Source: an uncultured Thermoleophilaceae bacterium (GTDB lineage: Bacteria > Actinomycetota > Thermoleophilia > Solirubrobacterales > Thermoleophilaceae). Taken from it: 64,000 bases of DNA. Location: NCBI GenBank assembly GCA_963828225.1, contig CAWHDX010000006.1:125318-189317 (forward strand). The letters run 5' to 3'. The position numbers and the translations under genes are program-made. Below the pieces are notes generated by a model, which was not told where the DNA came from, ran no database searches, and saw only the letters and a program-made list of their open reading frames with translations. This document shows, in pieces, positions 9,812-54,349 of this stretch; the first letter of the stretch is position 1; each line of letters starts with the position of its first letter.

Positions 9812-9824
9812 GGGTTCCTCGCGA

Positions 9825-12872: not shown

Positions 12873-12898
12873 CGACCGGTAAGACTTGCAGACCGCCC

Positions 12899-13704: not shown

Positions 13705-13717
13705 ATAGCCTGAGCCG

Positions 13718-15962: not shown

Positions 15963-15990
15963 CGGTTCTTCCTTCCTTCGCAGGTACAGG

Positions 15991-19962: not shown

Positions 19963-20231
19963 TCTCTCTCCTCCTGATCGCCCATTCCGGCGGTCCGTGC
20001 AACCGGACGAAACCGTGGAGCTAATTCCCAAGCGAACCTAACTCTGCGTGCCGCGCGGAGCCTAGACCCGTCCTTAGTCGCTTGTCAAGGCGTGATGTAG
20101 GCTGGAGGGGTGGCTTCTGAGCCGCATATAGTTTCTAACTGGAACCAAAATCACCGGCGCGTGGTTCCGCCCGCCGCAGCTCAGCTGGTAGCGGGTAGAT
20201 TCGGCTGCTGCCAATGGCGGGCTTTTGAGCA

Positions 20232-22391: not shown

Positions 22392-22403
22392 GGAGGCGCG
22401 CGG

Positions 22404-23417: not shown

Positions 23418-23541
23418 CCGTGTCTCCTCCTCAAGAAAGTTTCTATATGACTCGAATTACGAGGTCGAGGTGCGGCGACTATACAGCTGCGGGCTTGTCT
23501 GAGCCGCGTGCTGGACTCGCGCGGCGCAGATTGGTTCCGAT

Positions 23542-24483
23542 ATGGAACTATTGTTACCGGTGGAGCTCAGTCTCATGATCGAGTCGCAGGAGGGCGTCAG
23601 CTGGTCACAGTGGCGGGCGATCGCGGCCGCCGCCGAGGAGCACGGGCTGCAGGGGCTGTACGGATCCGACCATTACCTGTCGGAGCTACCCGGGAGCGAC
23701 CGCGACGCGCTCGACATCTGGGGAACGATCTGCGGCCTCGCGGCGGTCACTTCGCGCATCCGCCTCGGCACGCTCGTCTCGCCTGCGACCTTCCGCCATC
23801 CCTCGGTGCTCGCCAAGCTCGTCGTGACCGCCGATCACCTGTCAGGGGGTAGGGTCGACCTGGCGATGGGCACCGGCTGGTTCGAGGCGGAGCACCAGGC
23901 GTACGGCTTCCCGTTTCCGTCCCAGCGCGAGCGCATGGATGTCCTCGAGGAGCAGGTGGAGATCATCCGCCGCAGCTGGGGCACCGAGCGGTTCTCGTTC
24001 CGCGGCTCGCACTACGAGATCGTCGACCTCGACGCGCGCCCCAAGCCGTTGCGCCCGGGACGCCCGCGCCTCGTGATCGGCGGCGGCGGCGGACCGCGCA
24101 GCCTGGCGCTCGCAGCCGATTGGGCCGACGAGTACAACACGCCCCTGTCCACGGACGCCCTGCTCCGCCGCCTCCTGGAGGACCTGCGCGCGGCGTTCGA
24201 GCGCGCCGGCCGCGATCCCGCGACCGCACGGGTGTCCGTGATGACGCCGATCGTGGTCGGGGTGAATCACCGCGAGGTGGAGCAGCGTGTTGCGCGGGCC
24301 CGGCGGCTGCGGGGTGCGACGAGCCCTCCGGAGACATGGATCGTCGGCACCCCAGCCCAGGTGGTCGAGCGGCTGCACGAACTCGAGGCGCTCGGGGTGG
24401 CACACGCCGTCGTCGAGGCAGTCGACCACGCGGACCTCGAGATGGTCGCGCTCCTCGGGCGCGCAGTGCTCCCCGAGCTATGA
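23542..24483 (+). CDS. LLM-class (luciferase-like) F420-dependent oxidoreductase
   Basis: 313-aa intact ORF: LGTLVSPATFRHP..LAK...DHLSGGRVDLAMGTGW. Confidence 0.85.
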   Translation: MELLLPVELSLMIESQEGVSWSQWRAIAAAAEEHGLQGLYGSDHYLSELPGSDRDALDIWGTICGLAAVTSRIRLGTLVSPATFRHPSVLAKLVVTADHLSGGRVDLAMGTGWFEAEHQAYGFPFPSQRERMDVLEEQVEIIRRSWGTERFSFRGSHYEIVDLDARPKPLRPGRPRLVIGGGGGPRSLALAADWADEYNTPLSTDALLRRLLEDLRAAFERAGRDPATARVSVMTPIVVGVNHREVEQRVARARRLRGATSPPETWIVGTPAQVVERLHELEALGVAHAVVEAVDHADLEMVALLGRAVLPEL

Positions 24484-24932
24484 CCCGGGCGGGTCTCGAT
24501 GCGTTGGAGCTCGAGCTGCTCGATGCGGTGCTGGAGCGTCTGATCCCGTCGGACGGGCTCGGCGCGGGTGCGCGCGAGGCCTGCGTGTCGCGCTACCTGA
24601 CGAGGCGGCTCGCCGGGCCCTATCGCCACCACCTGGAGACGTACGCCGACGGCCTGCACCGCCTCGAGGCAGAATCGCGACAGCGCCACGGAGCCGGTTT
24701 CGCGAGCCTCGGCCCGGAACGGCAGGACGCGCTGCTGCACGCTGCCGCCACCCGCTCCGACGACGGCGACCCGTTCTTCGAGCTCCTCCTTGCGCACGCG
24801 CTCGAGGGGATGTTCGCGGACCCCTCCCACGGCGGCAACGCCGACCGTGTCGGCTGGCAGCTGATCGGGTACCCGGGCCCGCGCGCGGTGTGGAGCGAGG
24901 CGGACCAGCGGCTCGGCACGACGGACCCGTGA
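24480..24932 (+). CDS. gluconate 2-dehydrogenase subunit-3-family protein
   Basis: ATG overlaps the upstream stop (ATGA). Sequence LDAVLERLIPSD...FFELLLAHALEGMFADPSHGGN. Confidence 0.75.
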   Translation: MTRAGLDALELELLDAVLERLIPSDGLGAGAREACVSRYLTRRLAGPYRHHLETYADGLHRLEAESRQRHGAGFASLGPERQDALLHAAATRSDDGDPFFELLLAHALEGMFADPSHGGNADRVGWQLIGYPGPRAVWSEADQRLGTTDP

Positions 24933-26569
24933 CGCCGTCGACCGGTCGAGCCGCGGACGTGATCGTCGTGGGACTCGGCGCAGCGGGCAGCGTCGCCGCG
25001 CACGTCCTGACGCAAGCCGGACTGCGGGTCGTCGCCATCGAGGCCGGGCCGCGACTCCGCCGCGCGGACATGACGTTCGACGAGCTCCGAAACGACGTCG
25101 ACCAGTGGATGGGTGCACCCAAGTCCGCGGGAGAGGTGCCGACGTTCCGGACCGGCGTCGGCGAGCCGACCGCACCTGCGCCGTACCCGGCGGTGATGGT
25201 CAACGCGGTGGGCGGCTCAGCGCTGCACTACCCCGGGACGAGCCCGCGTCTGCTGCCGTGGAACTTCCGCGCGCGGTCGCTCACAGTGGAGCGGTACGGA
25301 GAGGGGGCCGTTCCCGCGGACTCCACGCTCGTCGACTGGCCGCTGGACTACGACGAACTCGAGCCGTACTACGACCTGGTCGAGCGGGCGATCGGCATCA
25401 GCGGCGCGGCGGGCGCCAACCCGTACGAGGGTCCGCGCAGCGGTCCGTACCCGATGCCCCCGCTGCGTCGCACCGGTCTCACGGAGCTGATGACCCGAGG
25501 CGCGCGCGAGCTCGGGTGGCATCCGTACCCCGCGCCCGCGGCGATCAACTCGATCCCTTTCAATGGCAACCCCGCCTGCACCTACTGCGGGTTCTGCGAG
25601 AACAACGGCTGCCACAACGGCGCGAAGGGCTCACCCGACAACAACCTGCTGCCCCTCGCCGAGGCGACCGGAAAGCTCGAGGTGATCGAGTCGGCGCGGG
25701 TGACGCGGATCGAGGTCGATCGCGGTGGCCGGGCCACAGGCGTCGCGTACGTGCAGCACGGCGAAGCCCGGGTTCAGCGCGCCGCGGCGGTGTTGCTGGG
25801 CGCGCATACGTACGAGAACGTGCGGCTGCTGCTGCTCTCCGGGATCGACGGGCGCGGGCAGGTCGGTCGGCACTTCATGCCCCACATCAACCCCGAGGTC
25901 TTCGGGCTGTTCCCCGGCATCGACCTGAAGATGGCGACGGGCTCGTGGGGACAGGGGGTCTCCGTCGACGACTTCAACGGCGACAACTTCGACCATGCCG
26001 GGCTCGGCTTCATCTCGGGCGGGATGTTCACGGCGGCTCACGAGCTCCTGAAGCCGATCCTGCTCAGCCAGACCGTGCCGCCCGGGCGTCCGCGCTGGGG
26101 ACCCGAGTGGAAGCTCTGGCTTGCGCGCCACGGCCGCTCGATCGCGATGACGCTCGCGCAGGTGGACGTGCTTCCCTACCGGACCAACATGCTCGACCTG
26201 GACCCGGTGGCCAAGGATCGCAACGGCATGCCGCGCGTGCGCGTGACCTTCAAGCCGCACGCGAGCGAGGCGCGCGCCCGCCGCTTCCTGATTGGGAAGC
26301 TCGCCGAGTGGCTGCGGGCGGCCGGCGCCACCGAGACATGGGCGCGGCCGGGAGAAGCGATCGAGCTGCGCACGGCGTACGGTGGCGCGAGGATGGGCGC
26401 CGACCCGAGCACCTCCGTCGTCGATCCCTTCGGCTTCGCCCACGGGATCGAGAACCTGGGTCTGCTCGGCAGCTGCCTCTTCCCGACCGCCGGGGGGCAC
26501 AACCCGACGCTCACTCTGCAGGCACTCGCCTGGCGCACGAGCGAGCGGCTCGTGGCGGACCTGACGTGA
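24929..26569 (+). CDS. GMC-family FAD oxidoreductase
   Basis: GTG overlaps the upstream stop (GTGA). Sequence DVIVVGLGAAGSVAA...; C-terminal ...GGHNPTLTLQALA. Intact in the 24287..26569 frame. Confidence 0.85.
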   Translation: MTPSTGRAADVIVVGLGAAGSVAAHVLTQAGLRVVAIEAGPRLRRADMTFDELRNDVDQWMGAPKSAGEVPTFRTGVGEPTAPAPYPAVMVNAVGGSALHYPGTSPRLLPWNFRARSLTVERYGEGAVPADSTLVDWPLDYDELEPYYDLVERAIGISGAAGANPYEGPRSGPYPMPPLRRTGLTELMTRGARELGWHPYPAPAAINSIPFNGNPACTYCGFCENNGCHNGAKGSPDNNLLPLAEATGKLEVIESARVTRIEVDRGGRATGVAYVQHGEARVQRAAAVLLGAHTYENVRLLLLSGIDGRGQVGRHFMPHINPEVFGLFPGIDLKMATGSWGQGVSVDDFNGDNFDHAGLGFISGGMFTAAHELLKPILLSQTVPPGRPRWGPEWKLWLARHGRSIAMTLAQVDVLPYRTNMLDLDPVAKDRNGMPRVRVTFKPHASEARARRFLIGKLAEWLRAAGATETWARPGEAIELRTAYGGARMGADPSTSVVDPFGFAHGIENLGLLGSCLFPTAGGHNPTLTLQALAWRTSERLVADLT

Positions 26570-26593
26570 CGGCCCGGCAGCCGCACCCGGCTG

Positions 26594-28048
26594 CTAGTCG
26601 GCGGCGGCCGGCGCGGCGGCGCCCGCCCGCAGCGTTGCCATAGACGGCAGCACCAGCAGCGCCACCGCGAGGCCGACCGCGAAGATCCCGGCGGCCCACC
26701 AGAAGGCGGTGGTGTAGCCGTGCACCGCGGCCGCCTGCGCCAGTCCCGGGCCGGGCGCGTGGCTCGCCGCGTAGCTCGACGCGGCGCTTGCGAACAGCGT
26801 GCTGAGCAGCGCCGTGCCGACCGATCCGCCGACCTGCTGGGAGGTGTTCACCATCGCCGAGGCGACGCCGGCCTCGGTGCGGTCCACGCCGAGCGTCGCG
26901 GTCCCGAACGCCGGAGCGAAGATGTTGCCCATCCCGAAGCCGATCAGGAGCAGACCCGGGAGCACGTGGCTCGCGTAGCCGCCGTCGGGGGTCAGCCGCG
27001 TGAAGAAGACCATCGCCAGCACCCCGAAGGTCATGCCGATCGAGACCAGCACCTTGGCGCCGACGCGGTGGAGCAGGCGCGTCTGGACAGTGGTCGCGGT
27101 GACGACGATCGTGGCCGTCATCGGCAGGAAGGCGACGCCGGTCTCGAGCGGCGACAGCCCGAGCGTCTGCTGCATGTAGAACGTGAGGAAGAGAAAGACG
27201 CCGAAGACGCCCGAGCCGGCGAGCGCGATCGAGGCGTAGGCGCCGCCGCGGGCGCGGTCCCACACGACGTGCAGCGGCAGCAGCGGATGCGCGGCGCGGC
27301 GCTCGATCGCGACGAAGGCGATCAGCAGCACGACGCTCGCGCCGAGCGAGAAGACGGTGAGCGGCGCAGTCCAGGAATCGGTCTCCGCGTTGGAGAACCC
27401 GTAGACCAGGCCGAACAGCCCGGCCGACCCGGCGACGACGCCCGGCACGTCGATGCGCGGTCGCTGCGGATGGCCCTGGTTGACGAGCAGGCGGAGCGCC
27501 ACCAGCGCCGCGGGCACCGCGATCACGAGGTTCACGTAGAGGCACCAGCGCCACGACAGGGCCTCGGTGAGGATGCCGCCGAGGATCAGGCCGACCGATG
27601 CGCCGCCGCCGGCGAGCGCGCCGAAGATGCCGAACGCCTTGGCGCGGTCGGGCGAGTCGGCGAACGTGACTGTCAGCAGGGAGAGCGCCGAGGGGGCGAG
27701 CAGCGCGCCGAAGGCGCCCTGGAGGGCGCGCGCCGCGACCAGAACGCCGAACGATCCGGCGAGCCCGCCGATCGCGGAGGCGATGGCGAAGCCCAGCAGG
27801 CCGGCGATGAAGGTCCACTTGCGGCCGAACAGATCGCCGAGCTTGCCGCCGAGCAGCAGCAGGCTGCCGAAGGCCAGCGCGTAGGCGGTGATGATCCACT
27901 GGCGCTGGTCGGTTCCGAAGCCGAGCGCGTCCTGAGCCGAGGGCAGGGCGATGTTCACGATGGTCGCGTCGAGCACCACCATGAGCTGCGCGGTGCCGAG
28001 GAGCGCCAGCACGGCCCAGCGGTTCGGTTCGCGGGCTCGTTCGGTCAT
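26594..28048 (-). CDS. MFS transporter (DHA2/EmrB-QacA type, 14 TM)
   Basis: ORF 26594..28066, ATG at 28048. Sequence VLDATIVNIALPS and LGGKLGDLFGRK. Confidence 0.85.
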   Translation of the reverse strand: MTERAREPNRWAVLALLGTAQLMVVLDATIVNIALPSAQDALGFGTDQRQWIITAYALAFGSLLLLGGKLGDLFGRKWTFIAGLLGFAIASAIGGLAGSFGVLVAARALQGAFGALLAPSALSLLTVTFADSPDRAKAFGIFGALAGGGASVGLILGGILTEALSWRWCLYVNLVIAVPAALVALRLLVNQGHPQRPRIDVPGVVAGSAGLFGLVYGFSNAETDSWTAPLTVFSLGASVVLLIAFVAIERRAAHPLLPLHVVWDRARGGAYASIALAGSGVFGVFLFLTFYMQQTLGLSPLETGVAFLPMTATIVVTATTVQTRLLHRVGAKVLVSIGMTFGVLAMVFFTRLTPDGGYASHVLPGLLLIGFGMGNIFAPAFGTATLGVDRTEAGVASAMVNTSQQVGGSVGTALLSTLFASAASSYAASHAPGPGLAQAAAVHGYTTAFWWAAGIFAVGLAVALLVLPSMATLRAGAAAPAAAD

Positions 28049-28100
28049 GCCACTCACACTACGCACGCCAGAGATCGGGATTTCGGGTTAGTGTCGCCCG

Positions 28101-28469
28101 ATGAACAACCGCCTCGTAGTCGTGCTGGCCGCCCTGCTCCTGCTTCCCGCCGCCCTTCTCGGAGCCGGCTGCGGCGGCGACGACTCGAGCGGGGACGACG
28201 CGCCCTCGCCGGCCGAGGCCGCGGAGAAGGCGAAGGACCTCGACATCCCGACGGACGCCGACGAGCTGAAGGCGACGTGCGTGGACGAGTTCACCCAGAG
28301 CGGCCGGTCCGAGTCCGAGGCCGAGAAGCTGTGCACGGTCCCCGACGACGAGGAGATCGACGCGCAGGTCGAGAAACTCGTCAAGGACTGCCTCGAGGTG
28401 GCCAAGTCCCTCCCGGACGGCGACGTGCAGGAGCAGGCCGAGCAGGACTGCCGCGACAGCGGCCAGTAG
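28101..28469 (+). CDS. small secreted lipoprotein, acidic, four extra Cys
   Basis: Lipobox LLGAGCGG; 122 aa; no family recognised. Confidence 0.6.
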   Translation: MNNRLVVVLAALLLLPAALLGAGCGGDDSSGDDAPSPAEAAEKAKDLDIPTDADELKATCVDEFTQSGRSESEAEKLCTVPDDEEIDAQVEKLVKDCLEVAKSLPDGDVQEQAEQDCRDSGQ

Positions 28470-28479
28470 CGGGCCGCGC

Positions 28480-29143
28480 TCAGGCGCGCAGCAGCTGGAC
28501 GCGGAGCGTCTCCATGAACCAGCGCTGCCACTGCTCCGGGCTCCAGTCGCGCTCGTGCACCAGCAGCTGCCAGACGTCGGGGTGGTTCAGCGTCCACAGG
28601 ATGTCGGTCGCGCGATGCACGTCCAGGCCGCGGCGCAGGGCCTTGCGCTCGTGCAGGACTTCCACGATCGCGCGCTGGTTGTCATAGAAGTCCGACTGGA
28701 TGCGGTCCCATAGCTGGGCGCTGTCGCGATCGACTGCGGCGGCGCTGCGGATCACGCCGAGGAGCGGCCCGATGCGCTCCTTGACGATCCGCGAGTTCTT
28801 CGCGATCAGCCGGACCTGACGCTGCGGGTCGCGCTCGTCGAGTAGCTCGCGATACCAGGCACGGTCGCCCATCGGTGCCTCCGCGTCGTCGCCGCGCAGC
28901 CGGAGGTTCCACAGGGCGCGCAGCACGCCGCTCTTGCTCTCGAACGCGAGGTAGACGGTCTTCAGCGACACGCCCGCTTCGGTCGCGATCGCCGCCATCG
29001 TGGTCGCGGACCACCCGGCGCGCTCGAACAGGCGCTGCGCCGCCTCGAGGATCTGCCCGCGCGTGGCCGCCGCCTGCTCGCGGCGCCGCGGCGAGTTGTA
29101 GCGCCGCTTCTTGACAGGGTCGGCGATTTCGGTAGTGTCGCAC
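28480..29143 (-). pseudogene. TetR-family transcriptional regulator; start codon out of frame by one base (about 29140)
   Basis: The HTH region KKRRYNSPRRREQAAATRGQILEAAQRLFERAGWSATTMAAIATEAGVSLKTVY is continuous with ORF 28480..28998 but has no in-frame start. GTG at 29143 is in frame if one base is removed. Confidence 0.75.
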
Positions 29144-29181
29144 GGAATTCATTACATGTATGGGGTAGGGAAAGGACCGTC

Positions 29182-30030
29182 ATGGAAGCCGGCAGCGAGC
29201 TCCGCAGGAACCTCCACGGGATCTGGGCCTCGGTTGCGACCGGCTGGGGTGAGCACGCCGACTACGCCGACGAGCGCGCCACGCCCATCACCGAGAAGCT
29301 GCTCGAGCTGTCCGAGCCGCGACCGGGCGACGGGGTTCTCGAGCTGGCCTGCGGGCCTGGCGGTCTGGGACTCGCGGCGGCCGAGCGGGTGCTCCCCGAC
29401 GGCGAGGTCGTGCTCTCGGACGTCGTGGAGGAGATGACGGCGATCGCGGCGGGTCGAGCCGCAGAGCGCGGCCTCGGCAATGTCGCGACCGAGGTGCTGG
29501 ACCTCGAGGAGATCGACCAGCCCGACGCGTCATACGACGTGGTGCTCTGCCGGGAAGGCCTCATGTTCGCCGTCGAGCCGGAGCAGGCCGCTCGGGAGAT
29601 TCGGCGGGTCCTGCGTCCCGCCGGGCGCGCCGCGGTCGCGGTCTGGGGGCCGCGGGCGCGCAACCCGTGGCTCGGGGCGGTGCTCGACTCGGTCAGCGCG
29701 CAGATCGGGGTGCCGATCCCGCCGCCGGGCATCCCGGGGCCGTTCGCCCTCGAGGACGCCGAGCGGCTGAGCGCGATCCTGACCGGCGCCGGGCTCGCGG
29801 GCGCGTCCGTCTCAGAGGTGGACGTGCGGTTGCGGGCCGGCTCGTTCGACGAGTGGTGGGAGCGGACAACTGCACTTGCGGGCCCGCTGGCGAGAATGCT
29901 CGAGGCCCTGGACGCGGGTGCGGCCGAGGAGCTGCGCGCTCGCGCCGAGGCGGCCGCAGAGCCCTACCGGACCGAGGCAGGCCTCGACTTCCCGGGCGTC
30001 ACGCTGGTCGGATTCGGCCGGCGGGTGTAG
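29182..30030 (+). CDS. class I SAM-dependent methyltransferase
   Basis: Motif I VLELACGPGGLG; 282-aa intact ORF. Confidence 0.8.
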   Translation: MEAGSELRRNLHGIWASVATGWGEHADYADERATPITEKLLELSEPRPGDGVLELACGPGGLGLAAAERVLPDGEVVLSDVVEEMTAIAAGRAAERGLGNVATEVLDLEEIDQPDASYDVVLCREGLMFAVEPEQAAREIRRVLRPAGRAAVAVWGPRARNPWLGAVLDSVSAQIGVPIPPPGIPGPFALEDAERLSAILTGAGLAGASVSEVDVRLRAGSFDEWWERTTALAGPLARMLEALDAGAAEELRARAEAAAEPYRTEAGLDFPGVTLVGFGRRV

Positions 30031-30044
30031 CGCCCGCCTCGCGC

Positions 30045-30392
30045 TCAGCTTGGCGGGACGTAGAGCTGGAGGTCGTTGCCGTCCGGGTCCTTGAAGGGGA
30101 CGATGCGGCCCCAGGGGTGCTCGGAGATCCGGTCCGAGAAGGTGACGCCGGCGCGCTCGAGCCGAGCCACCTCGTCCTCGAGGTCGCCGTCGGGCTGGAA
30201 GGCGATCAGCGCCCCGCCGTCGCCGCCCGGCGACTCGCTGCCGTTGAGGCCGATCTTCACCCCGTTGGCGTCGACCTCGCTCCAGTCGTCGTCGTGCTCG
30301 AGCACCTCGAGGCCGAGCGTGTCGCCGTAGAAGGCGACGGCCCGGGCCATGTCGTCGACGGGCAGCCAGACGGCCGCGACTCCCTTGATCAT
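30045..30392 (-). CDS. VOC (glyoxalase/bleomycin-resistance) family protein
   Basis: 115-aa intact ORF. Confidence 0.8.
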   Translation of the reverse strand: MIKGVAAVWLPVDDMARAVAFYGDTLGLEVLEHDDDWSEVDANGVKIGLNGSESPGGDGGALIAFQPDGDLEDEVARLERAGVTFSDRISEHPWGRIVPFKDPDGNDLQLYVPPS

Positions 30393-30471
30393 TTGCAGAC
30401 CTCCGAGTTGGTGTCCGGGCTGACCTTGTGCCCGGGTCTCGAGGGAGTACGGATCAGGGGGCGAGCGGGAT

Positions 30472-32706
<2,235 letters not shown>

Positions 32707-32756
32707 TCAAGATCGGAGATATCACCTCGGGCGTAGGTTGGCAGGACGGCCGCGTC

Positions 32757-32787
32757 AGGGGGGTGGGGAAGACCACCCCTCTGGGTG
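32757..32787 (+). promoter_or_regulatory. conserved G-arm/C-arm hairpin element, copy a
   Basis: AGGGGGGTGGGGAAGACCACCCCTCTGGGTG. The CCACCCC arm ends 46 nt before ATG 32825. Confidence 0.5.
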
Positions 32788-32824
32788 CTACTCCCGGCCG
32801 CCCGCGGCGAGGAGGGTGGACCAT

Positions 32825-34465
32825 ATGCCGATGCGCGCCGTCCCCCTCGTCCTGGCCACCATCCTGCTCGCGATCGTCGCGGCGCCGGGCGCGGCCGCTC
32901 CCGGCGACCTGGATACGTCCTTCGACGGCGACGGCGTGCGGACCGTCGACTGGGGCGGTGAGGCCGACGCAGCTCGGGACGTGCTGGTCCAGCCGGACGG
33001 CAAGATCGTGGTGGTGGGCACCGGCTTCGCCCCGCCCGTGGACATGGGAATCACTCGCCTCGCTCCCGACGGGAGCTTGGACAACGGCTTCAACGCCGAC
33101 GGCACCGCGTCGGTCGCGCTGGGGGACGTCGAGAACGGCAGCGCCGTGGCCATGGCGCCGGACGACAAGATCGTGACGGTAGGCCGGACGGCCGCGGGGC
33201 AGCGCGGGCTGGTCGCGCGCCATCTCCCGGACGGGACGCCGGACAACACCTTCGGGGTCGCCGGATCGATGACCCTGGAGTACGGCGGCGACGACAGCCT
33301 GCAGGACGTGGTGGTCCAGCCTGACAGCAAGATCGTGACGGTCGGCCAGGGCGGCGCCACGAACAACCTCGTCGTCACCCGCCTGATTGCGACGGGGCTG
33401 CCGGACGGGGCCTTCAACAGCGGCGCCGGCTCGGTGTCGTTCGACTTCGGCGCGATCGAAACCGGACAGGCGGTCGTCCTGCAGCCCGACGGCAAGATCC
33501 TCGCCGCCGGCAACACCAGCGCGGGCATGCAAGCGGCGGTCATCGTGCGCCTGAACGCGAACGGCACGCCGGACGCGAGCTTCGACGGGGACGGCCGCCT
33601 GACGGTCCCGGGCCCGGCGGGGAACGTCGTGCGGGACATGATGCTCCAGCCCGACGGCAAGATCGTGCTTGCGGGGTTCGTCAGCACGGACTTCACCGGG
33701 GGCGGCGTGTTTCGTGTGACTCGGCTCAACTCGGACGGGACGCTCGACAGCGGGTTCGGCACGAACGGCGCCGTCAGCTTCGCATTCAGCGATGAGGGCT
33801 TCGCGACCGCGGCAGCCCTGCTCGCCAACGGCAAGATCGTCATCACCGGCATGAACGGAAACCAGGCGGCGGTCGCGCGACTGCAGCCGGGCGGGACCCT
33901 CGACACCACCTTCGGGGCTGGCGGCAAGGCGAACGTCCCCGGGACCTTCGTCTTCCCGGAGGGGCTGGCGCTCCAGGCCAACGGGCGGATCATCCTCGCC
34001 GGCCGAAACCCGTTGGGAACACCGTGGGACGTGGCCATCGCCCGGATCGACAACGATTCGCCGGCCGCGGGCGGGGGCCCGGGCGGTGGCGGACCCGGTG
34101 GCGGACCCGGCGGCGGCGGCAAGTCGGTGCCGCGCTGCGCGGGCAAGCGCGCCACCATCGTCGGCTCGAACCGCTCAGACCGGCTCAAGGGCACGCGCCG
34201 CGCCGACGTGATCGTCGCCCTCGGCGGCAACGACCGGATCGCCGCCGGGCGCGGCAACGACGTCATCTGCGCCGGCAACGGCAACGACCGGATCGACGGC
34301 GGCTCCGGAAACGATCGCCTGTCCGGCGGCTCCGGAAACGACCGCCTCGCCGGCGGCTCCGGCAAGGACCGCCTGTCCGGCGAGACCGGCAAGGACAAGC
34401 TGATCGGCGGCTCGGGGCGCGACAAGCTCAGCGGCGGCCCGGGGCGCGACAGCCAGCAGCAGTAG
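32825..34465 (+). CDS. secreted delta-60-type beta-propeller repeat protein with Gly/Pro linker and C-terminal RTX (GGxGxDxLx) block
   Basis: ATG is preceded by GGAGGG. Signal peptide MPMRAVPLVLATILLAIVAAPGAAA. About eight repeats of the D.SF...G...QPDGKIV..G type, then GGNDRIAAGRGNDVI...GGSGNDRLSGGSGNDRLAGGSGKDRLS...SQQQ*. Confidence 0.8.
   Translation: MPMRAVPLVLATILLAIVAAPGAAAPGDLDTSFDGDGVRTVDWGGEADAARDVLVQPDGKIVVVGTGFAPPVDMGITRLAPDGSLDNGFNADGTASVALGDVENGSAVAMAPDDKIVTVGRTAAGQRGLVARHLPDGTPDNTFGVAGSMTLEYGGDDSLQDVVVQPDSKIVTVGQGGATNNLVVTRLIATGLPDGAFNSGAGSVSFDFGAIETGQAVVLQPDGKILAAGNTSAGMQAAVIVRLNANGTPDASFDGDGRLTVPGPAGNVVRDMMLQPDGKIVLAGFVSTDFTGGGVFRVTRLNSDGTLDSGFGTNGAVSFAFSDEGFATAAALLANGKIVITGMNGNQAAVARLQPGGTLDTTFGAGGKANVPGTFVFPEGLALQANGRIILAGRNPLGTPWDVAIARIDNDSPAAGGGPGGGGPGGGPGGGGKSVPRCAGKRATIVGSNRSDRLKGTRRADVIVALGGNDRIAAGRGNDVICAGNGNDRIDGGSGNDRLSGGSGNDRLAGGSGKDRLSGETGKDKLIGGSGRDKLSGGPGRDSQQQ
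34128..34465 (+). repeat. RTX-module direct repeat, copy 1 (pairs with 36860-37196)
   Basis: The 3' end of the gene is collinear with the 3' end of gene 35814..37196. I see only two differences in the last about 110 nt, and similarity stops at the TAG. Confidence 0.8.
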
Positions 34466-34474
34466 CAGGTCGGG

Positions 34475-34528
34475 GACAGCAGCCCGCCCATCACCGTGCC
34501 CCGGTGGTTCGCGTGCCGGCCCTCGGCG
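34475..34528 (-). pseudogene. fragment of a PaaI/hotdog thioesterase gene (paralogous to 38608..39000)
   Basis: GACAGCAGCCCGCCCATCACCGTGCCCCGGTGGTTCGCGTGCCGGCCCTCGGCG aligns with 38846-38899. By hand the first 20 nt are identical and about 84 percent overall. It encodes LAEGRHANHRGTVMGGLLS versus LAEERHANRRGTVMGGLLS. Confidence 0.7.
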
Positions 34529-34532
34529 AGTC

Positions 34533-34562
34533 GAGGGGTGCGAGATACCACCCCTCTGGGGG
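34533..34562 (+). promoter_or_regulatory. conserved G-arm/C-arm hairpin element, copy b
   Basis: GAGGGGTGCGAGATACCACCCCTCTGGGGG with a perfect 8-bp stem. The CCACCCC arm ends 47 nt before ATG 34601 and 35 nt before ATG 34589. Confidence 0.5.
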
Positions 34563-34588
34563 TTAGCGGCGCCCCCGACTTGCGGCGT

Positions 34589-35491
34589 ATGTTCGCGACC
34601 ATGCGCATTCCCCGTTCCGTCGCCCTGGTCGGCGCCGTCCTGGGCCTTGCCGTCTCGGCCGGCCCGGCCTCTGCCGCAGGCCACATCACCTACAGCGTCG
34701 GGGAGGAGGACCTGCTCCTGCGCGTGGCGGCTCGTGCCGGAGCGACGCCGCAGGACGTTTCCGCCGGGCTCGACCGCCGCTTTCCCGGCGGCGGCGACCA
34801 GTTCCTCAACCAGTCGCCCGACGGCAAGGCGCTCGTCCTCCAGAGCGAGCGCTTCGGCTGCGGCGGCTACCCGTGCCTCGCAGTCGTGTCGAGCAACCTC
34901 AGGGCCGGCAAGGCCGTGCGTGGCGGCACGGTGCACGTCGAGGGCTTCTCGGCGGTCGGTAACGGCGGGCGCGTGGTGGTCTATCCGGCGCGGTCGAGCG
35001 ACGACCGGATCGACCTGTTCGTCAGCCGCAAGACGGGCGGTGCGTGGAGCAAGCCGCGCAACGTGACCAAGGGGTCACCGATAAAGGTCCACACCCATCC
35101 GGCCATCTCGGAGGACTCGAAGCGCGTGCTGCACGACTGCGGCGACGCGGGCGACCCCTCCATGGGCACGATTTCGGTGTGCGAGTCGCGCCTCGACGGC
35201 AAGGGAACGCGGATCCGGATGCGCCCGTCCGACGGCCGCAAACCGCAGGACCCGGCCTTCGGCCCGGGCAGCCTTCACCACGGGGACTACCTCGGGCGCG
35301 GCAAGGGGCTCGTGTTCGAATCGCAGTGGTGCTGCGAGGGCGAGTCCATCTGGTGGCTACCCAAGGGGAAGCGCGCGCCCAAGCACGTGCGCAGCGCCGG
35401 CGGCAACATCGTCGCGCCGTGCGGCCTGCCTGACGGCCGCGTGGTGACCCTCGACCTGAGCCGGCCGCGGGCGGGGGCGTCCACGAGCTGA
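34589..35491 (+). CDS. secreted protein, PD40/TolB-like beta-propeller features
   Basis: Signal peptide (MFAT)MRIPRSVALVGAVLGLAVSAGPASA. Motifs SPDGKALVL and DLFVSRKTGGAWSKP. Alternative start at 34601. Confidence 0.65.
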   Translation: MFATMRIPRSVALVGAVLGLAVSAGPASAAGHITYSVGEEDLLLRVAARAGATPQDVSAGLDRRFPGGGDQFLNQSPDGKALVLQSERFGCGGYPCLAVVSSNLRAGKAVRGGTVHVEGFSAVGNGGRVVVYPARSSDDRIDLFVSRKTGGAWSKPRNVTKGSPIKVHTHPAISEDSKRVLHDCGDAGDPSMGTISVCESRLDGKGTRIRMRPSDGRKPQDPAFGPGSLHHGDYLGRGKGLVFESQWCCEGESIWWLPKGKRAPKHVRSAGGNIVAPCGLPDGRVVTLDLSRPRAGASTS

Positions 35492-35749
35492 TGATCACCT
35501 CGCCGACGTCAAGGAAGAGGACCTTCGTGCTGCCGCCGGGAATCGACGTGAACGACAGCGGGATCGGCTGCGGGGCCTAGCCGGCGTCTCCCTTCCAGCG
35601 CCTGGCCTCTCGCTGCACGGTCCCGTACCGGTCGGGGCACCGCGCCCAGGGGAGCGTCGAGATCCGTATCGGTCGGCCTTGTCGGCGAGTTTGGGCTGCA
35701 CTCCTGTGGCCACCGTGCTCGGGGAGCCCGTGATCGCGGGCTAGAAGGC

Positions 35750-35778
35750 GGGGTGGAGAAGTCCACCCCTCAGGGGGG
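35750..35778 (+). promoter_or_regulatory. conserved G-arm/C-arm hairpin element, copy c
   Basis: GGGGTGGAGAAGTCCACCCCTCAGGGGGG. The CCACCCC arm ends 45 nt before ATG 35814. Confidence 0.5.
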
Positions 35779-35813
35779 TTTCGTCGCCGCGCCTGGTGCA
35801 CGACGCTCATCCC

Positions 35814-37196
35814 ATGCCCAGGGCCACCCTCCGCCGAGTATCGCTGACCGTGATCGCGCTGACCTGCGCCGGGGCGCCCGCCGTCCAGGCGGCGCCCGGC
35901 GGCGACGCCTTCGTCGAGGAGACGACCGTCTCGGTGCCGGCCATGGAGTCGGCATCGGCGGCCGCCGCTTGCCCGGACGGATCGCGCGTCGTGGGAGGCG
36001 GCGTGGACGCGATCGCCGGCTTCCTCTCACTCGACCGGTTCCCGGACTACGTCGTGCAGATGAGCGGGCCTGTCGACGACACCGGCTCCTGGGCGAACAC
36101 GGAGGACGGTGAGGTCGCGCGCCAGTGGCTCGCCTACTGGCGCAACTCGTCCACGCAGACCCTGGACTTCAAGGTCTTCGCGCTCTGCTCGCGCAGCTCC
36201 GACGCCACGATCGAGACGACGCGGCGCGACGGCGTGGCGAGCAGGACCGCCGCGCCCCTTGCGACGACGTGCCCATCGGGATCGCGCGTGGTGGGCGGCG
36301 GACTCGGGACGAACGGCCCGATGCCCACGGGGGAGGGAGGCAACACCTACGTGCTGCAGATGAGCGGACCCGTGGACGACACGGGCACGTTCATCTCCAC
36401 CGAGGACGGGGACGTCGCCCCCAGTTGGTGGACCTACGCGTTGAACCAATGGCTCGACCCGGTCGCGTACAAGGTCTTCGCGCTCTGCTCGCGCCAATCC
36501 GACGCCACCATCGAGGCGACCGCGTTCGAGCTGCCCACGGCGCTCTCGTTCGCGGGGGCCGCCGCCTGCCCCGCCGGGAAGCGGGTGCTGGGCGGCGGGG
36601 TCGGCTCGCACGGCCCCGCGCCGGGCGGAATGAACCTGAACTACATCGTCCAAGCGGCCGGCCCCGAGGACGAGACGGACTCCAGCCGAAACACCGTCGA
36701 CGGAGACGTCGCGCGACGCTTCTACGGCTACGTCGACAACCGCTCCGGGGCCACGCAGACATTCAAGGTGCTCGCGCTGTGCGCAACCGATGACATGCAG
36801 GCGGGCGGCGGCGGGCCGGGAGGCGGGCCGGGTGGCGGCGGGCCGGGAGGTGGCGACGGACCGCGCTGCGGCGGCAAGGTCGCCACGATCGTCGGCAGCA
36901 ACCGCTCGGAGCGCATCTCCGGCACCCGGCGGGCCGACGTGATCGTGGCGCTCGGCGGCAACGACCGCATCAAGGGCGGCCGCGGCAACGACGTCATCTG
37001 CGCCGGCAACGGCAACGACCGGATCGACGGCGGCAGCGGCAACGACCGCCTCGCCGGCGGCTCCGGAAACGACCGCCTCGCCGGCGGGTCCGGCAAGGAC
37101 CGCCTGTCCGGCCAGACCGGCAAGGACAAGCTGATCGGCGGCTCGGGGCGCGACAAGCTCAGCGGCGGCCCGGGGCGCGACAGCCAGCAGCAGTAG
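35814..37196 (+). CDS. secreted protein: three tandem Cys-bracketed repeats of about 100 aa, Gly/Pro linker, C-terminal RTX block
   Basis: Signal peptide MPRATLRRVSLTVIALTCAGAPAVQA. Each repeat runs CP.GSRVVGGG ... QMSGPVDDTG ... DG.VA..W ... FKVFALCSR. DNA period is exactly 300 nt between 36171 and 36471. The RTX tail is nearly identical to that of 32825..34465. Confidence 0.8.
   Translation: MPRATLRRVSLTVIALTCAGAPAVQAAPGGDAFVEETTVSVPAMESASAAAACPDGSRVVGGGVDAIAGFLSLDRFPDYVVQMSGPVDDTGSWANTEDGEVARQWLAYWRNSSTQTLDFKVFALCSRSSDATIETTRRDGVASRTAAPLATTCPSGSRVVGGGLGTNGPMPTGEGGNTYVLQMSGPVDDTGTFISTEDGDVAPSWWTYALNQWLDPVAYKVFALCSRQSDATIEATAFELPTALSFAGAAACPAGKRVLGGGVGSHGPAPGGMNLNYIVQAAGPEDETDSSRNTVDGDVARRFYGYVDNRSGATQTFKVLALCATDDMQAGGGGPGGGPGGGGPGGGDGPRCGGKVATIVGSNRSERISGTRRADVIVALGGNDRIKGGRGNDVICAGNGNDRIDGGSGNDRLAGGSGNDRLAGGSGKDRLSGQTGKDKLIGGSGRDKLSGGPGRDSQQQ
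36860..37196 (+). repeat. RTX-module direct repeat, copy 2 (pairs with 34128-34465)
   Basis: See copy 1. Both end ...GGSGRDKLSGGPGRDSQQQ*. Confidence 0.8.
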
Positions 37197-37284
37197 CCGG
37201 CGCGGCGACGCGCGGAGAAATTACGAGAGCGCCCTGCGGCTGCACGTCTTTCCTCGGCCAGGGCGGCTCAAGCTGTCTACGACT

Positions 37285-37331
37285 GATGGCGAGGGCCGGA
37301 ATCGAACCGGCGACACCACGATTTTCAGTCG
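37285..37331 (-). repeat. 47-nt perfect copy of the tRNA-Phe 3' half (anticodon loop to discriminator), att-like
   Basis: GATGGCGAGGGCCGGAATCGAACCGGCGACACCACGATTTTCAGTCG is identical to 38370-38416 in the same orientation. No 5' half is present. Confidence 0.85.
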
Positions 37332-37601
37332 AGGCCAGCGGTTGCGGCTGTTTGCGGTTTCTAGGCGTACAGCGGGACTGCGGCGCCTGGCACCCGAATG
37401 ATTTGCGGGGTTTCCGGGTGTCGTGTTGCCCAGCCGTTGCCCAGACCGGGCATAGCGGACCGCTCTCGCGTTGCATGGAAAGGAGCACTGCGCCCAAGAG
37501 CGAGAGCGCGTGCTGCTCGCAGGCGGATGCGAAAGATAGCTCCGGATGGTTCGAGCAGCGAGCGGCGCGTGGGGCAATGGCGCAGCATTTAGGCTGGCCG
37601 C

Positions 37602-38147
37602 ATGCGCAGACTCCGCCCCTCACCCGCCATGACCGTTGCTCTGATCGCCTTGTTCGTGTCGCTGGGAGGCACGGGCTACGCGGCGCTGAAGCTGCCGAGG
37701 AACAGCGTGGGACCGAGGCAGTTGCAGGCCAACAGCGTCACCTCGACCAAGGTGAAGCAGGGGTCGCTGGCGCTGAGCGACATCAGGTCGTCGGCCCGCA
37801 CCGGCCTGCGCGGACCGGAGGGGCCGCGCGGGGCGCAGGGCCCGCAGGGGCCGAGCGGGACGAGCAAGATCGTGATGCGCAAGGGATCGACGGGCTTCGC
37901 GGCGGCCAACGACTTCGGCACCGCCGACGCGTCGTGCAAGGCGGGCGAGCGCGCGACCGGGGGAGGGGCCATCCCGGCCAACCGGTTTTACCTGCGCGTT
38001 TCGGGCAGCTATCCGCTGCCGAACCCCGTGGCGGCCCCGTCGACCGGCGATGGCCTGACCCCGACCGGCTGGCGCGTCTTCGTGGTGAACGAGAACACGA
38101 CGACTGGCTTCGACTTCGAGGCGTACGTGATCTGCGCGTCGCCGTAG
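37602..38147 (+). CDS. membrane-anchored collagen-like protein carrying one Cys-bracketed domain
   Basis: N-terminal anchor MTVALIALFVSLGGTGYAA and Gly-X-Y run GLRGPEGPRGAQGPQGPSG. The C-terminal CKAGERATGGG...W...FEAYVICASP matches the repeat unit of 35814..37196. Confidence 0.75.
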   Translation: MRRLRPSPAMTVALIALFVSLGGTGYAALKLPRNSVGPRQLQANSVTSTKVKQGSLALSDIRSSARTGLRGPEGPRGAQGPQGPSGTSKIVMRKGSTGFAAANDFGTADASCKAGERATGGGAIPANRFYLRVSGSYPLPNPVAAPSTGDGLTPTGWRVFVVNENTTTGFDFEAYVICASP

Positions 38148-38154
38148 GAGGTGA

Positions 38155-38197
38155 TAGCTCCGGATGGATTCGAACCATCGACCTCACGATTATGAGT
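38155..38197 (-). pseudogene. tRNA-Met(CAT)-like 3' half only
   Basis: The reverse complement ACTCATAATCGTGAGGTCGATGGTTCGAATCCATCCGGAGCTA has a CAT anticodon loop, T arm and acceptor 3' strand. No matching 5' half is present. Confidence 0.7.
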
Positions 38198-38371
38198 TGA
38201 GGCTGGTGGTTGCGGCTGTTGGTGGTTGCTAGGCCCAGCGCGTGATCGGGCCGGGGAGGCGGACCCTCCTTCCCGGGCTAGGCTGCGCCGGTGCCGGTCT
38301 GGGGGTGGATCGCGGTCGGGCGAGTCGCGGGTCGCAGCGGAGAATCGAACGGCTTGCAGGCATTTCGTCGA

Positions 38372-38444
38372 TGGCGAGGGCCGGAATCGAACCGGCGACA
38401 CCACGATTTTCAGTCGTGTGCTCTACCAACTGAGCTACCTCGCC
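38372..38444 (-). tRNA. tRNA-Phe (anticodon GAA)
   Basis: The reverse complement GGCGAGGTAGCTCAGTTGGTAGAGCACACGACTGAAAATCGTGGTGTCGCCGGTTCGATTCCGGCCCTCGCCA folds as a 73-nt cloverleaf. CCA is not encoded. Confidence 0.95.
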
Positions 38445-38607: not shown

Positions 38608-39000
38608 TCAGCCCACCACCACGAACACCGCCCGCGCGCGCACGATCTCCGTGTCGCCGACGCTCAGCACGCAGTCCGCGAACGACAGCGTGCGGCCGAC
38701 GCGGTCGACGCCGGTGCGCGCTTCGATCCAGTCGCCCGGCTCCGCGGGCTTCAGGTAGTCGACCGTCAGGCTGACCGTCGCGCGCTCGTGGTCGTCGGTC
38801 GCATCGGCCTCGATCGCCCGCCCCAGCGCGAAGTCGGCCAGCGTCGACAGCAGCCCGCCCATCACGGTCCCGCGGCGGTTGGCGTGCCGCTCCTCGGCCA
38901 GCAGCCCCAGCACCGCCTGATCTCCGTCCGAGCGGACGTGGATCGGGCCGACGTGCTCCAGGAACGGGCCCTGCCCCGGAAAAGGCGAGAAGCCCTCGGG
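38608..39000 (-). CDS. PaaI-family (hotdog fold) thioesterase; start codon not resolved
   Basis: C-terminal part of track ORF 38608..39660: IPEGFSPFPGQGPFLEHVGPIHV...HANRRGTVMGGLLSTLADFALG...LTVDYLKPA. There is no canonical start just upstream of IPEGF. Confidence 0.7.
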   Translation of the reverse strand, partial: PEGFSPFPGQGPFLEHVGPIHVRSDGDQAVLGLLAEERHANRRGTVMGGLLSTLADFALGRAIEADATDDHERATVSLTVDYLKPAEPGDWIEARTGVDRVGRTLSFADCVLSVGDTEIVRARAVFVVVG

Positions 39001-39005
39001 GATGG

Positions 39006-39524
39006 CTACGCCAGCCCCTCGCTCTTGTACTCGCGCAGGAAGCCCTCGAACAGCCGCCGGTGGCCCTCCTCGTCGCGGAGGATCGCCGTGACCATGTCCT
39101 GCGTCACCGGGTCCTTGCCCTCGCAGAACTCGATGACCTGGTTGTAGTGCTCGATCGCGCCGGTCTCGGCCTCGATCACGCCCTTGATGACGTGGACGAT
39201 GTCGATCTGGTCGTCGGGCGGCTGCAGGTAGGACTGCTCGGCGCTGAAGTCGAGCGACCCGGGCACAACGCCGTAGAGCTCCTTGATCCGCTCGCCGAAC
39301 TGGCGCGCGTGCCCGAGCTCCTCCTGGATGTCCTCCTCGAGCGACTCGATGATCTCCTGCGCGCGCACGCCCTCGGGGTTGATCGAGTTCGCGATGTAGC
39401 TCATCACGGTCTCGATCTCCATCCAGTAGGCCGTGGTCAGCAGCTCGATGAGCTGCTCGCGCTCTCCGCTCAGCTCGTCGCTGAGGATCCCATGGCGCAG
39501 AGTGGTGTTGGTGTCGGTGGCCAT
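39006..39524 (-). CDS. ferritin-like domain protein
   Basis: 172-aa intact ORF: ELLTTAYWMEIETVMSY...EELGHARQF...EGHRRLFE. Confidence 0.8.
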   Translation of the reverse strand: MATDTNTTLRHGILSDELSGEREQLIELLTTAYWMEIETVMSYIANSINPEGVRAQEIIESLEEDIQEELGHARQFGERIKELYGVVPGSLDFSAEQSYLQPPDDQIDIVHVIKGVIEAETGAIEHYNQVIEFCEGKDPVTQDMVTAILRDEEGHRRLFEGFLREYKSEGLA

Positions 39525-41520: not shown

Positions 41521-41590
41521 GAGGCCGGGGGGCGAGTCCATTCAGCGGCAGGCTATCCCGTCCGGGTTCGGTTCTACCGTGGCCTTCCAG

Positions 41591-42582: not shown

Positions 42583-42649
42583 CTCGCAAATTGCGGGGCC
42601 ACGCGGGGGCGTGACGCCCGCGGTTTCCCGCTTATCTTCGGGACCGCCC

Positions 42650-54335: not shown

Positions 54336-54349
54336 GGAGCTATGCCGAG

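Follow-up and report, generated by a model that had tools for sequence, protein, structure and literature searches.

This analysis concerns a block of four genes in a 64-kb stretch of DNA (hereafter the window; about 72% GC) from an uncultured soil Thermoleophilaceae actinobacterium. The four open reading frames (ORFs), labelled A to D, are all on the plus strand and sit between katG and the gene for tRNA-Phe(GAA), both of which are on the minus strand. Thermoleophilia are abundant soil Actinomycetota, almost entirely uncultured, and to our knowledge little has been described of their secreted or surface proteins or of their gene regulation. The locus is a tRNA-linked variable region with uncharacterised exoproteins, whose propeller, RTX and collagen-like parts are of known kinds. 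We consider it probable, with some reserve, that this is a recombining region anchored at tRNA-Phe, which carries scars of old elements and in which exoprotein genes sharing one type of promoter have been shuffled, the RTX tails of two of them having undergone gene conversion. The genes of the block and of its immediate surroundings are the following:

30472..32673, minus strand: katG (catalase-peroxidase), left neighbour of the block and divergent from gene A, recognised from its ORF and translation
32825..34465, plus strand: gene A, encoding a signal peptide, a seven-blade delta-60/DUF5122 beta-propeller, a Gly-rich linker and an RTX beta-roll tail
34601..35580, plus strand: gene B, encoding a signal peptide and a TolB-like beta-propeller, with a 1-nt deletion near 35463
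35814..37196, plus strand: gene C, encoding a signal peptide, three tandem Cys-bracketed beta-sandwich modules of about 100 aa, a Gly-rich linker and an RTX tail
37602..38147, plus strand: gene D, encoding an N-terminal membrane anchor or signal, a conserved stalk, six G-X-Y triplets and one Cys-bracketed module
38372..38444, minus strand: intact tRNA-Phe(GAA), directly adjoining the block
38608..39003, minus strand: hotdog-fold (4HBT) thioesterase gene, between tRNA-Phe and Dps
39006..39524, minus strand: Dps-like ferritin gene, the first gene of the conserved flank

The relatives of the window are metagenome-assembled genomes (MAGs) of uncultured Thermoleophilaceae and other Solirubrobacterales. 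They were sampled at one genome per species and scanned with the adjacent Dps-like ferritin, which gave 80 loci at no more than 95% amino acid identity; related loci are referred to below by labels such as L001, L003, L004 and L083. The four genes are native in composition, the GC content of the block (0.69-0.74) being in the same range as most of the window and the GC content at third codon positions (GC3) of its genes (0.90-0.92) being like that of neighbouring genes.

Architecture of the encoded proteins

In all four proteins the N-terminus shows a charged N-region, then a hydrophobic stretch and lastly an AxA-like site, which suggests that A to D are exported. In gene A, the propeller is recognised by the delta-60 model TIGR02608 (262.8 bits, curated cut-off 76.5) and by PF17164 (DUF5122; 154 bits, cut-off 27, E 1e-45), and the DNA holds seven repeats of about 165 nt, hence the seven blades. 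The RTX repeat model HemolysinCabind (PF00353) matches both A (E 8e-29) and C (E 4e-28), and at the DNA level the two tails (repeat family D1) share 89% identity across 300 nt. Calcium-dependent folding outside the cell, binding to ligands or surfaces and a location at the cell surface may be expected of the block proteins, and an adhesin-like role is conceivable.

Strong RTX nonapeptide matches (HemolysinCabind E about 1e-28), partial alignments to RTX-toxin models and a Foldseek match of the tail of C to RTX block V of CyaA could together point to classical RTX exoproteins or toxins leaving the cell through a type I secretion system (T1SS). For A and C, we find this scarcely credible. The two proteins carry N-terminal signal peptides; both stop straight after the last RTX repeat (GRDSQQQ*), with no additional C-terminal segment that could serve in secretion; their scores against the RTX-toxin and serralysin models of NCBIfam are far under the cut-offs (55-75 versus 500-2000 bits); inspection of ORF translations in the window revealed no HlyB- or HlyD-like gene; and the host belongs to the Actinomycetota. 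By their architecture, A and C are not T1SS substrates.

The part of C that precedes its tail has a different character. Its three repeats of about 100 aa (repeat families D7, D9 and D13) each contain one invariant pair of cysteines (C53/C125, C153/C225 and C252/C323), and RTX is the only family match of the protein. No Pfam model covers the Cys module, and a profile of C searched against the sequences of the PDB matched through the RTX tail only, with no solved structure for a sequence relative. An AlphaFold2 (AF2) model of C built with 62 homologs has a predicted local distance difference test score (pLDDT) of 88 and comprises three beta modules of six strands each, followed by a disordered linker rich in Gly and by a beta-roll. 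Searched with Foldseek against the PDB, this model aligns over about 300 columns with the C-terminal V-domain of PCSK9 (E 9e-7 to 1e-4) and, over about 300 columns too, with the APC-beta domain of the apicomplexan protein PLP1 (E 3-4e-6); a pseudo-threefold packing of the three subdomains is conceivable, the superpositions having template-modelling (TM) scores (TMt) of 0.25-0.54 and a root-mean-square deviation (rmsd) of 6-8 A. The PCSK9 V-domain and APC-beta were described as a distinct subgroup of double-layered beta-prisms, with pseudo-threefold symmetry and disulfides linking the layers (PMC6294395). With a profile of the three repeats, representative clusters reaching E<=1e-3 numbered 2,606 among 1.84 billion, of which 211 reached E<=1e-30. 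Judging from the predicted models, the Cys module is likely to be a family without annotation whose fold has to date been reported from eukaryotes.

A further copy of this module forms the C-terminal 78 residues of D (hhalign probability 95%, E 2e-8), behind a segment that contains GLRGPEGPRGAQGPQGPSG and amounts to six G-X-Y triplets. D itself has no Pfam Collagen match, no significant family match and no LPXTG motif in its sequence, and the NCBIfam models of the collagen-like proteins Scl and Lcl match it weakly (16-17 bits versus cut-offs of 325-500); more than 600 relatives of D were found, some of which carry Pfam Collagen (PF01391). The module may serve as a threefold head, present as three copies per chain in C and as one copy per chain in D, where the stalk would bring about trimerisation. 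A phage-tail origin was also considered: PHROGs returned for D only low-complexity collagen matches to tail fibres, and the proposal was rejected since Foldseek comparison of the C model with viral models gave no convincing match (TM <= 0.3). A literature search on the delta-60 repeat, DUF5122 and bacterial resistin- or PCSK9-like collagen proteins found nothing relevant.

Gene B has no Pfam or NCBIfam family match, and its profile reaches E 0.26-0.39 only against PDB sequences, whereas a distant homolog has a weak PD40 match. Its start is most likely the ATG at 34601. The ORF as called stops at 35491, the homologous frame running on to 35580: homologs (n=20) are about 325 aa long, the missing C-terminus of B lies in the +1 frame up to 35580, and alignment to the ortholog in L083 places a 1-nt deletion in B near 35463. 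The deletion may stem from an error of long-read sequencing or may be a genuine mutation. Genes outside the block are often broken or fused by frame shifts as well (9825-13277, 13572-16067, 41480-44038 and elsewhere), examples being a histidine kinase, a response-regulator/thioredoxin-reductase region and an 852-aa chimeric ORF, and these breaks, like that of B, are consistent with indel errors of a long-read MAG assembly. An AF2 model of an ortholog 81% identical to B (pLDDT 72) matches the TolB propeller in Foldseek (E 3e-9, TMq 0.58).

An earlier note on this DNA, made without database searches, had anticipated much of this anatomy: four consecutive plus-strand genes with signal or anchor N-termini next to a tRNA gene, a delta-60-type propeller ending in an RTX block (A), three Cys-bracketed repeats of about 100 aa followed by the same block (C), a collagen-like protein with a fourth copy of the Cys domain (D) and module-level DNA identity between genes were all recovered here. 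Its description of B as PD40/TolB-like holds at the level of the fold, by way of the ortholog model, and fails at the level of sequence, where B matches no PD40 or TolB model; its statement that the block is free of frame breaks is wrong for B. The structure prediction and remote-homology search that it had proposed led to the PCSK9 V-domain/APC-beta likeness of C and to the TolB-like propeller of the ortholog of B.

A palindrome phased with a -10-like hexamer

Genes A, B and C are each preceded by a common signal, GGGGTGG-N6-CCACCCC-TCTGGGG, followed 25 nt further on by a -10-like hexamer of the form nAnnnT that lies 6-9 nt before the start codon. Bit scores are those of R1, a sequence model built from an alignment of sites.

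32760..32785, plus strand: palindrome upstream of A, GGGGTGG-GGAAGA-CCACCCC then TCTGGG (R1 48.5 bits over 32750-32826)
32812..32817, plus strand: -10-like hexamer GAGGGT of A, 25 nt past the motif and 7 nt before the ATG at 32825
34535..34560, plus strand: palindrome upstream of B, GGGGTG-CGAGATAC-CACCCC-TCTGGGG (R1 45.6 bits)
34588..34593, plus strand: -10-like hexamer TATGTT of B, 7 nt before the ATG at 34601
35750..35775, plus strand: palindrome upstream of C, GGGGTGGA-GAAG-TCCACCCC-TCAGGGG (R1 48.4 bits)
35802..35807, plus strand: -10-like hexamer GACGCT of C, 6 nt before the ATG at 35814

Within the 64 kb there are three hairpins, where 0.04 would be expected, and each of them is upstream of A, B or C. 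A loose version of the motif (CACCCCTNTGGGG), searched in 1.48 Mb of related sequence, is found only upstream of genes of the A, B and C families, and R1 detects in the window only the three known sites (45-48 bits), its next-best hits (<=12 bits) being reverse-strand hits on the same palindromes. In the 1.48 Mb of relatives, R1 sites are confined to L004 and L083; they precede the A homolog and the B ortholog, and one more hit, at 15254-15312 of L004 (27.9 bits), lies between convergent genes and has no confirmed downstream gene. Public metagenome contigs scanned with GGGTG-N8-CACCCCTCTGGG provided 77 loci. Among the high-GC hits, the motif is situated 30-80 nt upstream of ORFs that start with signal peptides, and the genes behind it encode three DUF5122 propellers (two of them with RTX tails), a lactonase-like seven-blade propeller, a D-like anchored protein and members of several unknown families. 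Since the same signal precedes signal-peptide proteins of several families, it appears to mark a regulon of secreted proteins.

In an alignment of 20 sites (A6), GGgTg...CACCCCTctGGG is invariant and two downstream positions, A66 and T70, are at least 90% conserved; they are four bases apart, with nothing conserved between them, and belong to the hexamer in columns 65-70. As nAnnnT, this agrees with the -10 element of Actinobacteria, in which TANNNT hexamers and leaderless mRNAs are established, the latter being common (PMC3898074). In an unselected count, nAnnnT is found exactly 25 nt past the motif in 14 of the 23 distinct high-GC hits, as compared with 0-1 of 23 at each of 17 other offsets and with 3/46 low-GC hits at 25 nt. 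Hexamers placed, as in most cases, 6-9 nt from start codons would give leaderless or near-leaderless mRNAs, with the centre of the palindrome near -55. From these sequence comparisons, the hairpin is most likely a DNA operator combined with a core promoter, marking a small regulon of secreted proteins, and on a limited literature check this promoter signature appears to be undescribed. The earlier note had listed the shared hairpin among the features of a locus that it took to be mobile or fast-evolving; the hairpin is indeed there, and its phasing with the -10 hexamer does not agree with a mobility scar.

Two arrangements of the signal in other sequences are worth recording. At 14580-15312 of L004, a gene for an FHA-LuxR-type regulator is flanked by two palindromes, one of which is shared with the divergent A homolog; regulators of this family are possible candidates for control of the signal. 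In L153 (3765-3801) and L104 (486-522), two operator-promoters of opposite orientation stand back to back at a distance of about 36 nt, in what looks like a divergent promoter pair.

The motif could alternatively act in RNA, as a hairpin of the 5' untranslated region that stabilises the transcript or serves as a riboregulator. For the copies before A and C and for that of L001, folding predicts a stable stem rich in GC, whose CCCC tract could pair instead with the GGGG downstream. We nevertheless hold such an RNA element to be decidedly unlikely: the arms are simply conserved and show no compensatory variation, the predicted fold differs between copies with mostly insignificant z-scores, the left arm is lost in L083, and if the phased hexamer is the -10 element the palindrome is not transcribed. 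No Rfam family matched at the hairpins, either at the gathering threshold or at a permissive E-value on the block, and a scan for promoters and terminators of the E. coli type gave nothing useful. Elsewhere in the window, a cyclic di-AMP riboswitch of the ydaO/yuaA type (54333-54481, plus strand; 82.6 bits versus a gathering threshold of 38) was found upstream of an ORF at about 54721-55236.

Scars, gene conversion and variable gene content at tRNA-Phe

Elements using tyrosine integrases target the part of tRNA genes that extends from the anticodon loop to the 3' end, as exemplified by the pheV and pheU islands of enterobacteria. The right-hand part of the block contains two half-tRNAs of this kind, and other duplicated DNA lies further to the left:

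34270..34465, plus strand: gene-conversion tract in the RTX tail of A, with its partner at 37000-37196 in C
34475..34530, minus strand: 56-nt internal fragment of a thioesterase gene, between the stop codon of A and the promoter of B, 86% identical to 38846-38901
37286..37332, minus strand: exact 47-nt copy of the 3' half of tRNA-Phe (anticodon loop to 3' end), attR-type scar
37333..37377, minus strand: element-arm sequence beside the tRNA-Phe scar (repeat family D3), homologous to 38201-38245
37534..37555, minus strand: candidate second fragment, short and degenerate, that resembles the tRNA-Met-like 3' end, noticed by reading the sequence
38152..38200, minus strand: tRNA-Met(CAT)-like 3' half with the anticodon loop CTCATAA, attR-type scar
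38201..38245, minus strand: element-arm sequence beside the tRNA-Met-type scar, homologous to 37333-37377
8970..38371, no strand: lineage-specific variable stretch of about 29 kb anchored at tRNA-Phe, from blastn of the 80 related loci against the window

The anticodon loop CTCATAA corresponds to CAT, that is, Met or Ile2, and the homologous arms of about 45 nt beside both half-tRNAs identify these as attR-type scars of two related elements with different tRNA targets. The tRNA-Phe repeat bounds only 1.1 kb (37286-38444), with gene D and the Met-type scar inside and A, B and C outside, and there is no third copy of it in the window. The similarity of the thioesterase fragment to the intact gene is not reached by any of 300 shuffles; a second candidate fragment of that gene, upstream of C (family D15), was discarded as no better than shuffled sequence (44/300 reach its score). 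The intact thioesterase (38608-39003), to whose family the fragment goes back, is without a homolog at all 80 related loci when matches down to E 1e-2 are admitted. Both the gene and its fragment are specific to the lineage of the window.

Gene conversion was examined in a three-way alignment of A and C of the window with the L001 ortholog of C. Over the first 240 or so alignment columns, C is closer to its own ortholog (58/60) than to A (52/60). From about 37000 to the stop codon the relationship is reversed, C agreeing with A at 58/60 and 60/60 positions and with its own ortholog at 49/60 and 48/60, and past the stop codon C tracks its L001 ortholog again. Intragenomic gene conversion over about 200 nt has made the RTX tails of A and C alike, which accounts for the module-level DNA identity of the two genes.

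Homologs of single genes of the block are found in quite different settings. The metagenome contig L001 is 92% identical to 35749-37212 of the window only, that is, from the palindrome to 16 nt past the stop codon of C, and its copy of C adjoins tRNA-Ser(CGA) and a 49-aa remnant which resembles the last 30 positions of the Phage_integrase profile (PF00589 140-168; E 0.006, under the curated cut-off). The B ortholog of L083, on a 4.2-Mb contig, has 83% nucleotide identity to 34542-35574 only and is surrounded by beta-oxidation genes. In neither case are the flanks related to the window, and homology starts at 35749 for L001 and inside the B palindrome, at 34542, for L083. In Gaiellaceae, C-family genes are part of a chromosomal cluster that is conserved and also encodes another RTX/Cys-domain protein and a GH5 cellulase; as seen in L084/L085 (6002-11100), two adjacent genes for RTX/Cys-module proteins stand there with small unknowns and the cellulase gene, and 18 contigs show this cluster. 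Its make-up may point to a connection with the binding or breakdown of polysaccharides. A GH5-like gene also occurs in the window, at about 13700-14900. D-family genes occur singly amid housekeeping genes. In a lower-GC relative (L090, 2032-6504), a 504-aa RTX gene is located between the genes for the large and the B12-binding subunit of methylmalonyl-CoA mutase and is followed by a D homolog, as single-gene insertions into a housekeeping cluster, without the motif. Taken as sequence comparisons, these cases suggest that units made of a promoter and an ORF have been shuffled between genomes and sites by recombination.

Such units could also be mobile single-gene cassettes, with the hairpins as recombination sites of an integron- or REP-like kind (REP, repetitive extragenic palindromic). 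All genes of the block have one orientation, a palindrome stands before each of A, B and C, the left limit of homology to copies elsewhere falls at the palindrome or within it and the right limit no more than 16 nt from the stop codon, and the RTX and D-like genes of L090 are wedged singly between housekeeping genes. Yet the 25-nt phasing of the palindrome to a -10 hexamer near the start codon is what a promoter would show and would not be expected if crossovers took place there; genes of the IntI or RAYT type were not found, and the palindrome does not resemble attC in structure; the motif is met with about once per 500 kb in relatives and in this rarity differs from REP elements; and the L090 genes lack it. 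We consider a cassette system distinctly improbable, and the locus is not an integron.

Comparison of gene order places the block in a wider context. On the Dps side, blastn of the 80 loci shows synteny kept for about 10 kb (from 39006 to about 49000), and in most of the closer relatives tRNA-Phe directly follows Dps. Beyond tRNA-Phe, gene content differs in every relative, until in L008, L024, L030, L036, L038 and L056 synteny resumes 1.3-7 kb past the tRNA gene, with the part of the window that extends from about 8967 to about 1285 and includes a DUF3352 lipoprotein gene (7319-8773). By this criterion, about 8970-38371 of the window is lineage-specific. This stretch of about 29 kb holds katG, an MFS/TetR pair, genes for a methyltransferase and a glyoxalase, sugar-uptake and isomerase genes, a GH5-like glycosidase, a histidine kinase and a response-regulator/thioredoxin-reductase fusion, and the four-gene block is its tRNA-proximal end. 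Segments of lower GC inside it (15001-20000 and 23001-24000; 0.66-0.69 versus about 0.72) carry sugar ABC-transporter genes.

A homolog of A is present at the Dps/tRNA-Phe site in one of the 80 relatives (L004), and homologs of B, C or D in none; none of the 80 has a katG homolog within 10 kb of Dps. In L004 (92% Dps identity), the A homolog lies 2.2 kb from tRNA-Phe, and ankyrin and DUF2867 genes stand where B to D sit in the window. The closest relative, L003 (95% Dps identity), has another island of 8.3 kb at the same tRNA-Phe (10636-19000; GC 61-68%), which is limited by the tRNA gene on one side and by a 43-nt repeat of the 3' half of that gene on the other. Its products are a Zeta toxin, a DUF4041/T5orf172 protein and unknowns, and it contains no obvious integrase, none of 110 aa or more having been seen. 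The tRNA-Phe site is a genuine hot spot.

These observations could be accommodated if the four genes were the cargo of one degenerate tRNA-Phe island that has lost its integrase and can be mobilised in trans. The block adjoins tRNA-Phe and an exact 47-nt att-type repeat, relatives such as L003 have other islands at the site, and the C ortholog of L001 is found beside tRNA-Ser and a probable integrase C-terminal remnant. Several points make this reading unlikely. The repeat bounds gene D and leaves A, B and C outside; GC and GC3 match the genome; L004 has A near tRNA-Phe without B, C and D; and the B ortholog resides among beta-oxidation genes, not at a tRNA. Moreover, inspection of translations across 8774-38600 revealed no recombinase-like ORF, tblastn with the L001 integrase fragment had no match in the window, and by these two approaches no integrase, excisionase or transfer gene was found; the Pfam scan of the window covered A to D, the thioesterase, Dps and two other ORFs. 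The block does not look like a bounded island, and only 37286-38444 is att-bounded.

Several proposals of the earlier note bear on this point. The partial tRNA copies and the thioesterase fragment that it had seen are real, no recombinase has come to light, and the comparison of synteny that it had suggested indicates that related genomes lack the interval or fill it differently. Of its mobile or fast-evolving locus, the accessory and recombining character is borne out and the bounded unit is not; nor is the block wedged as a unit between katG and tRNA-Phe, as katG lies in the same variable stretch.

Interpretation and comparison with known systems

Anatomy, scars, hexamer phasing, synteny and gene conversion are seen directly at the locus, and folds are read from predicted models. 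The course of events that we favour would be as follows. At least two related elements of the tyrosine-integrase type, one targeting tRNA-Phe and the other tRNA-Met, would have integrated here or contributed DNA, leaving attR-type half-tRNA scars with homologous arms, and their integrases would since have gone. The four genes would encode exported, disulfide-containing all-beta binding modules, namely two propellers and the PCSK9-V/APC-beta-like beta-prism module, joined to a C-terminal RTX beta-roll in A and C or to a short collagen-like stalk in D, which may trimerise. A, B and C would be separate transcription units, each with its own copy of the conserved promoter, and a putative dimeric DNA-binding regulator acting at the palindrome would control the small regulon. 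Gene-sized units of promoter and ORF would be shuffled between genomes and sites by recombination.

Several points weigh against this scenario or parts of it. On the regulatory side, no candidate regulator was found in the window, which also has no homolog of the FHA-LuxR protein of L004, and this protein was set aside as regulator here; the L004 copy at 15254-15312 might function as a hairpin of the terminator kind; most hexamers start with G, where TANNNT has T; in L083, the palindrome has a degenerate left arm; promoters and start sites are placed from sequence; and the folding of six leader RNAs is not consistently conserved, which speaks against an RNA element without proving a DNA operator. 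As for the proteins, TM-scores to the C-terminal domain of PCSK9 are modest (best TMt 0.54), D has only six G-X-Y triplets, signal peptides were judged by eye, and the RR in the N-termini of C and D means that these two could be substrates of twin-arginine translocation (Tat). Concerning the region as a whole, there is no att repeat at the left end of the 29-kb stretch, which may consequently reflect ordinary rearrangement and not integration, and the scenario does not explain the origin of the thioesterase fragment.

Combining the protein and promoter data, one may tentatively go further, in a proposal that we rate as more doubtful than the scenario above: an undescribed, widespread bacterial family of beta-prism heads, pseudo-trimeric in C and homotrimeric in D, together with a regulon bearing a new operator/leaderless-promoter signature, might remodel an exported, Ca-dependent binding repertoire in uncultured soil Thermoleophilia. 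The locus does not overturn current understanding. Its promoter/operator signature may serve to draw up the secreted-protein regulon of any related genome or metatranscriptome; it draws attention to a large unannotated domain family with a predicted fold earlier described only in eukaryotes (PCSK9 and apicomplexan perforin-like proteins); and it offers a worked example of a tRNA-linked region that accumulates scars, appears to shuffle promoter-gene units and homogenises repeats by conversion.

With tRNA-associated islands, the locus shares an intact tRNA-Phe accompanied by a displaced exact copy of its 3' half, a site whose content differs between relatives, and a second scar with a homologous arm, as in a family of elements. 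It differs from them by native composition, by the absence of an integrase in the block and by an att-bounded piece of 1.1 kb only, most of the block being outside the repeat and the 29-kb stretch having no left-hand repeat. Integrons are more distant still: no IntI was found, and the palindrome, of 20-26 nt, is 5' of each ORF and phased with a -10 hexamer.

The tails of A and C have the GGxGxD nonapeptide repeats of RTX beta-rolls such as CyaA block V and the C-terminal domains of serralysins and lipases, and the AF2 tail model superposes on CyaA block V with an rmsd of 1.3-1.9 A over about 90 residues. Unlike these, the block proteins carry an N-terminal Sec-type (or Tat-type) signal without the C-terminal T1SS signal segment, have no linked T1SS, and possess a conserved Cys pair that caps the roll. 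The likeness of B to the six-bladed TolB/PD40 propellers comes from the alignment of its ortholog, through a model of moderate confidence, and from the weak PD40 match of a distant homolog; B has neither the N-terminal domain of TolB nor a Tol-Pal context, in addition to matching no family model.

D resembles the collagen-like proteins Scl1/2, BclA and Lcl in the succession of an N-terminal anchor or signal, G-X-Y triplets and a globular beta domain, in its weak Scl/Lcl matches and in the PF01391 matches of several of its homologs. It departs from them by its few triplets, the lack of LPXTG, scores far under the cut-offs and a head of another family. This head module, finally, has its closest structural counterparts in the PCSK9 V-domain and APC-beta beta-prisms: C shares with them three tandem beta-rich repeats of about 100 aa with conserved cysteines, and Foldseek relates them at E 1e-6 to 5e-6 over about 300 aligned columns. 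In contrast to these eukaryotic domains, with which no sequence similarity was detected and TM-scores are modest, C is bacterial, fused to an RTX tail and provided with one Cys pair per repeat, and the module of the block also occurs singly, after the collagen-like segment of D.

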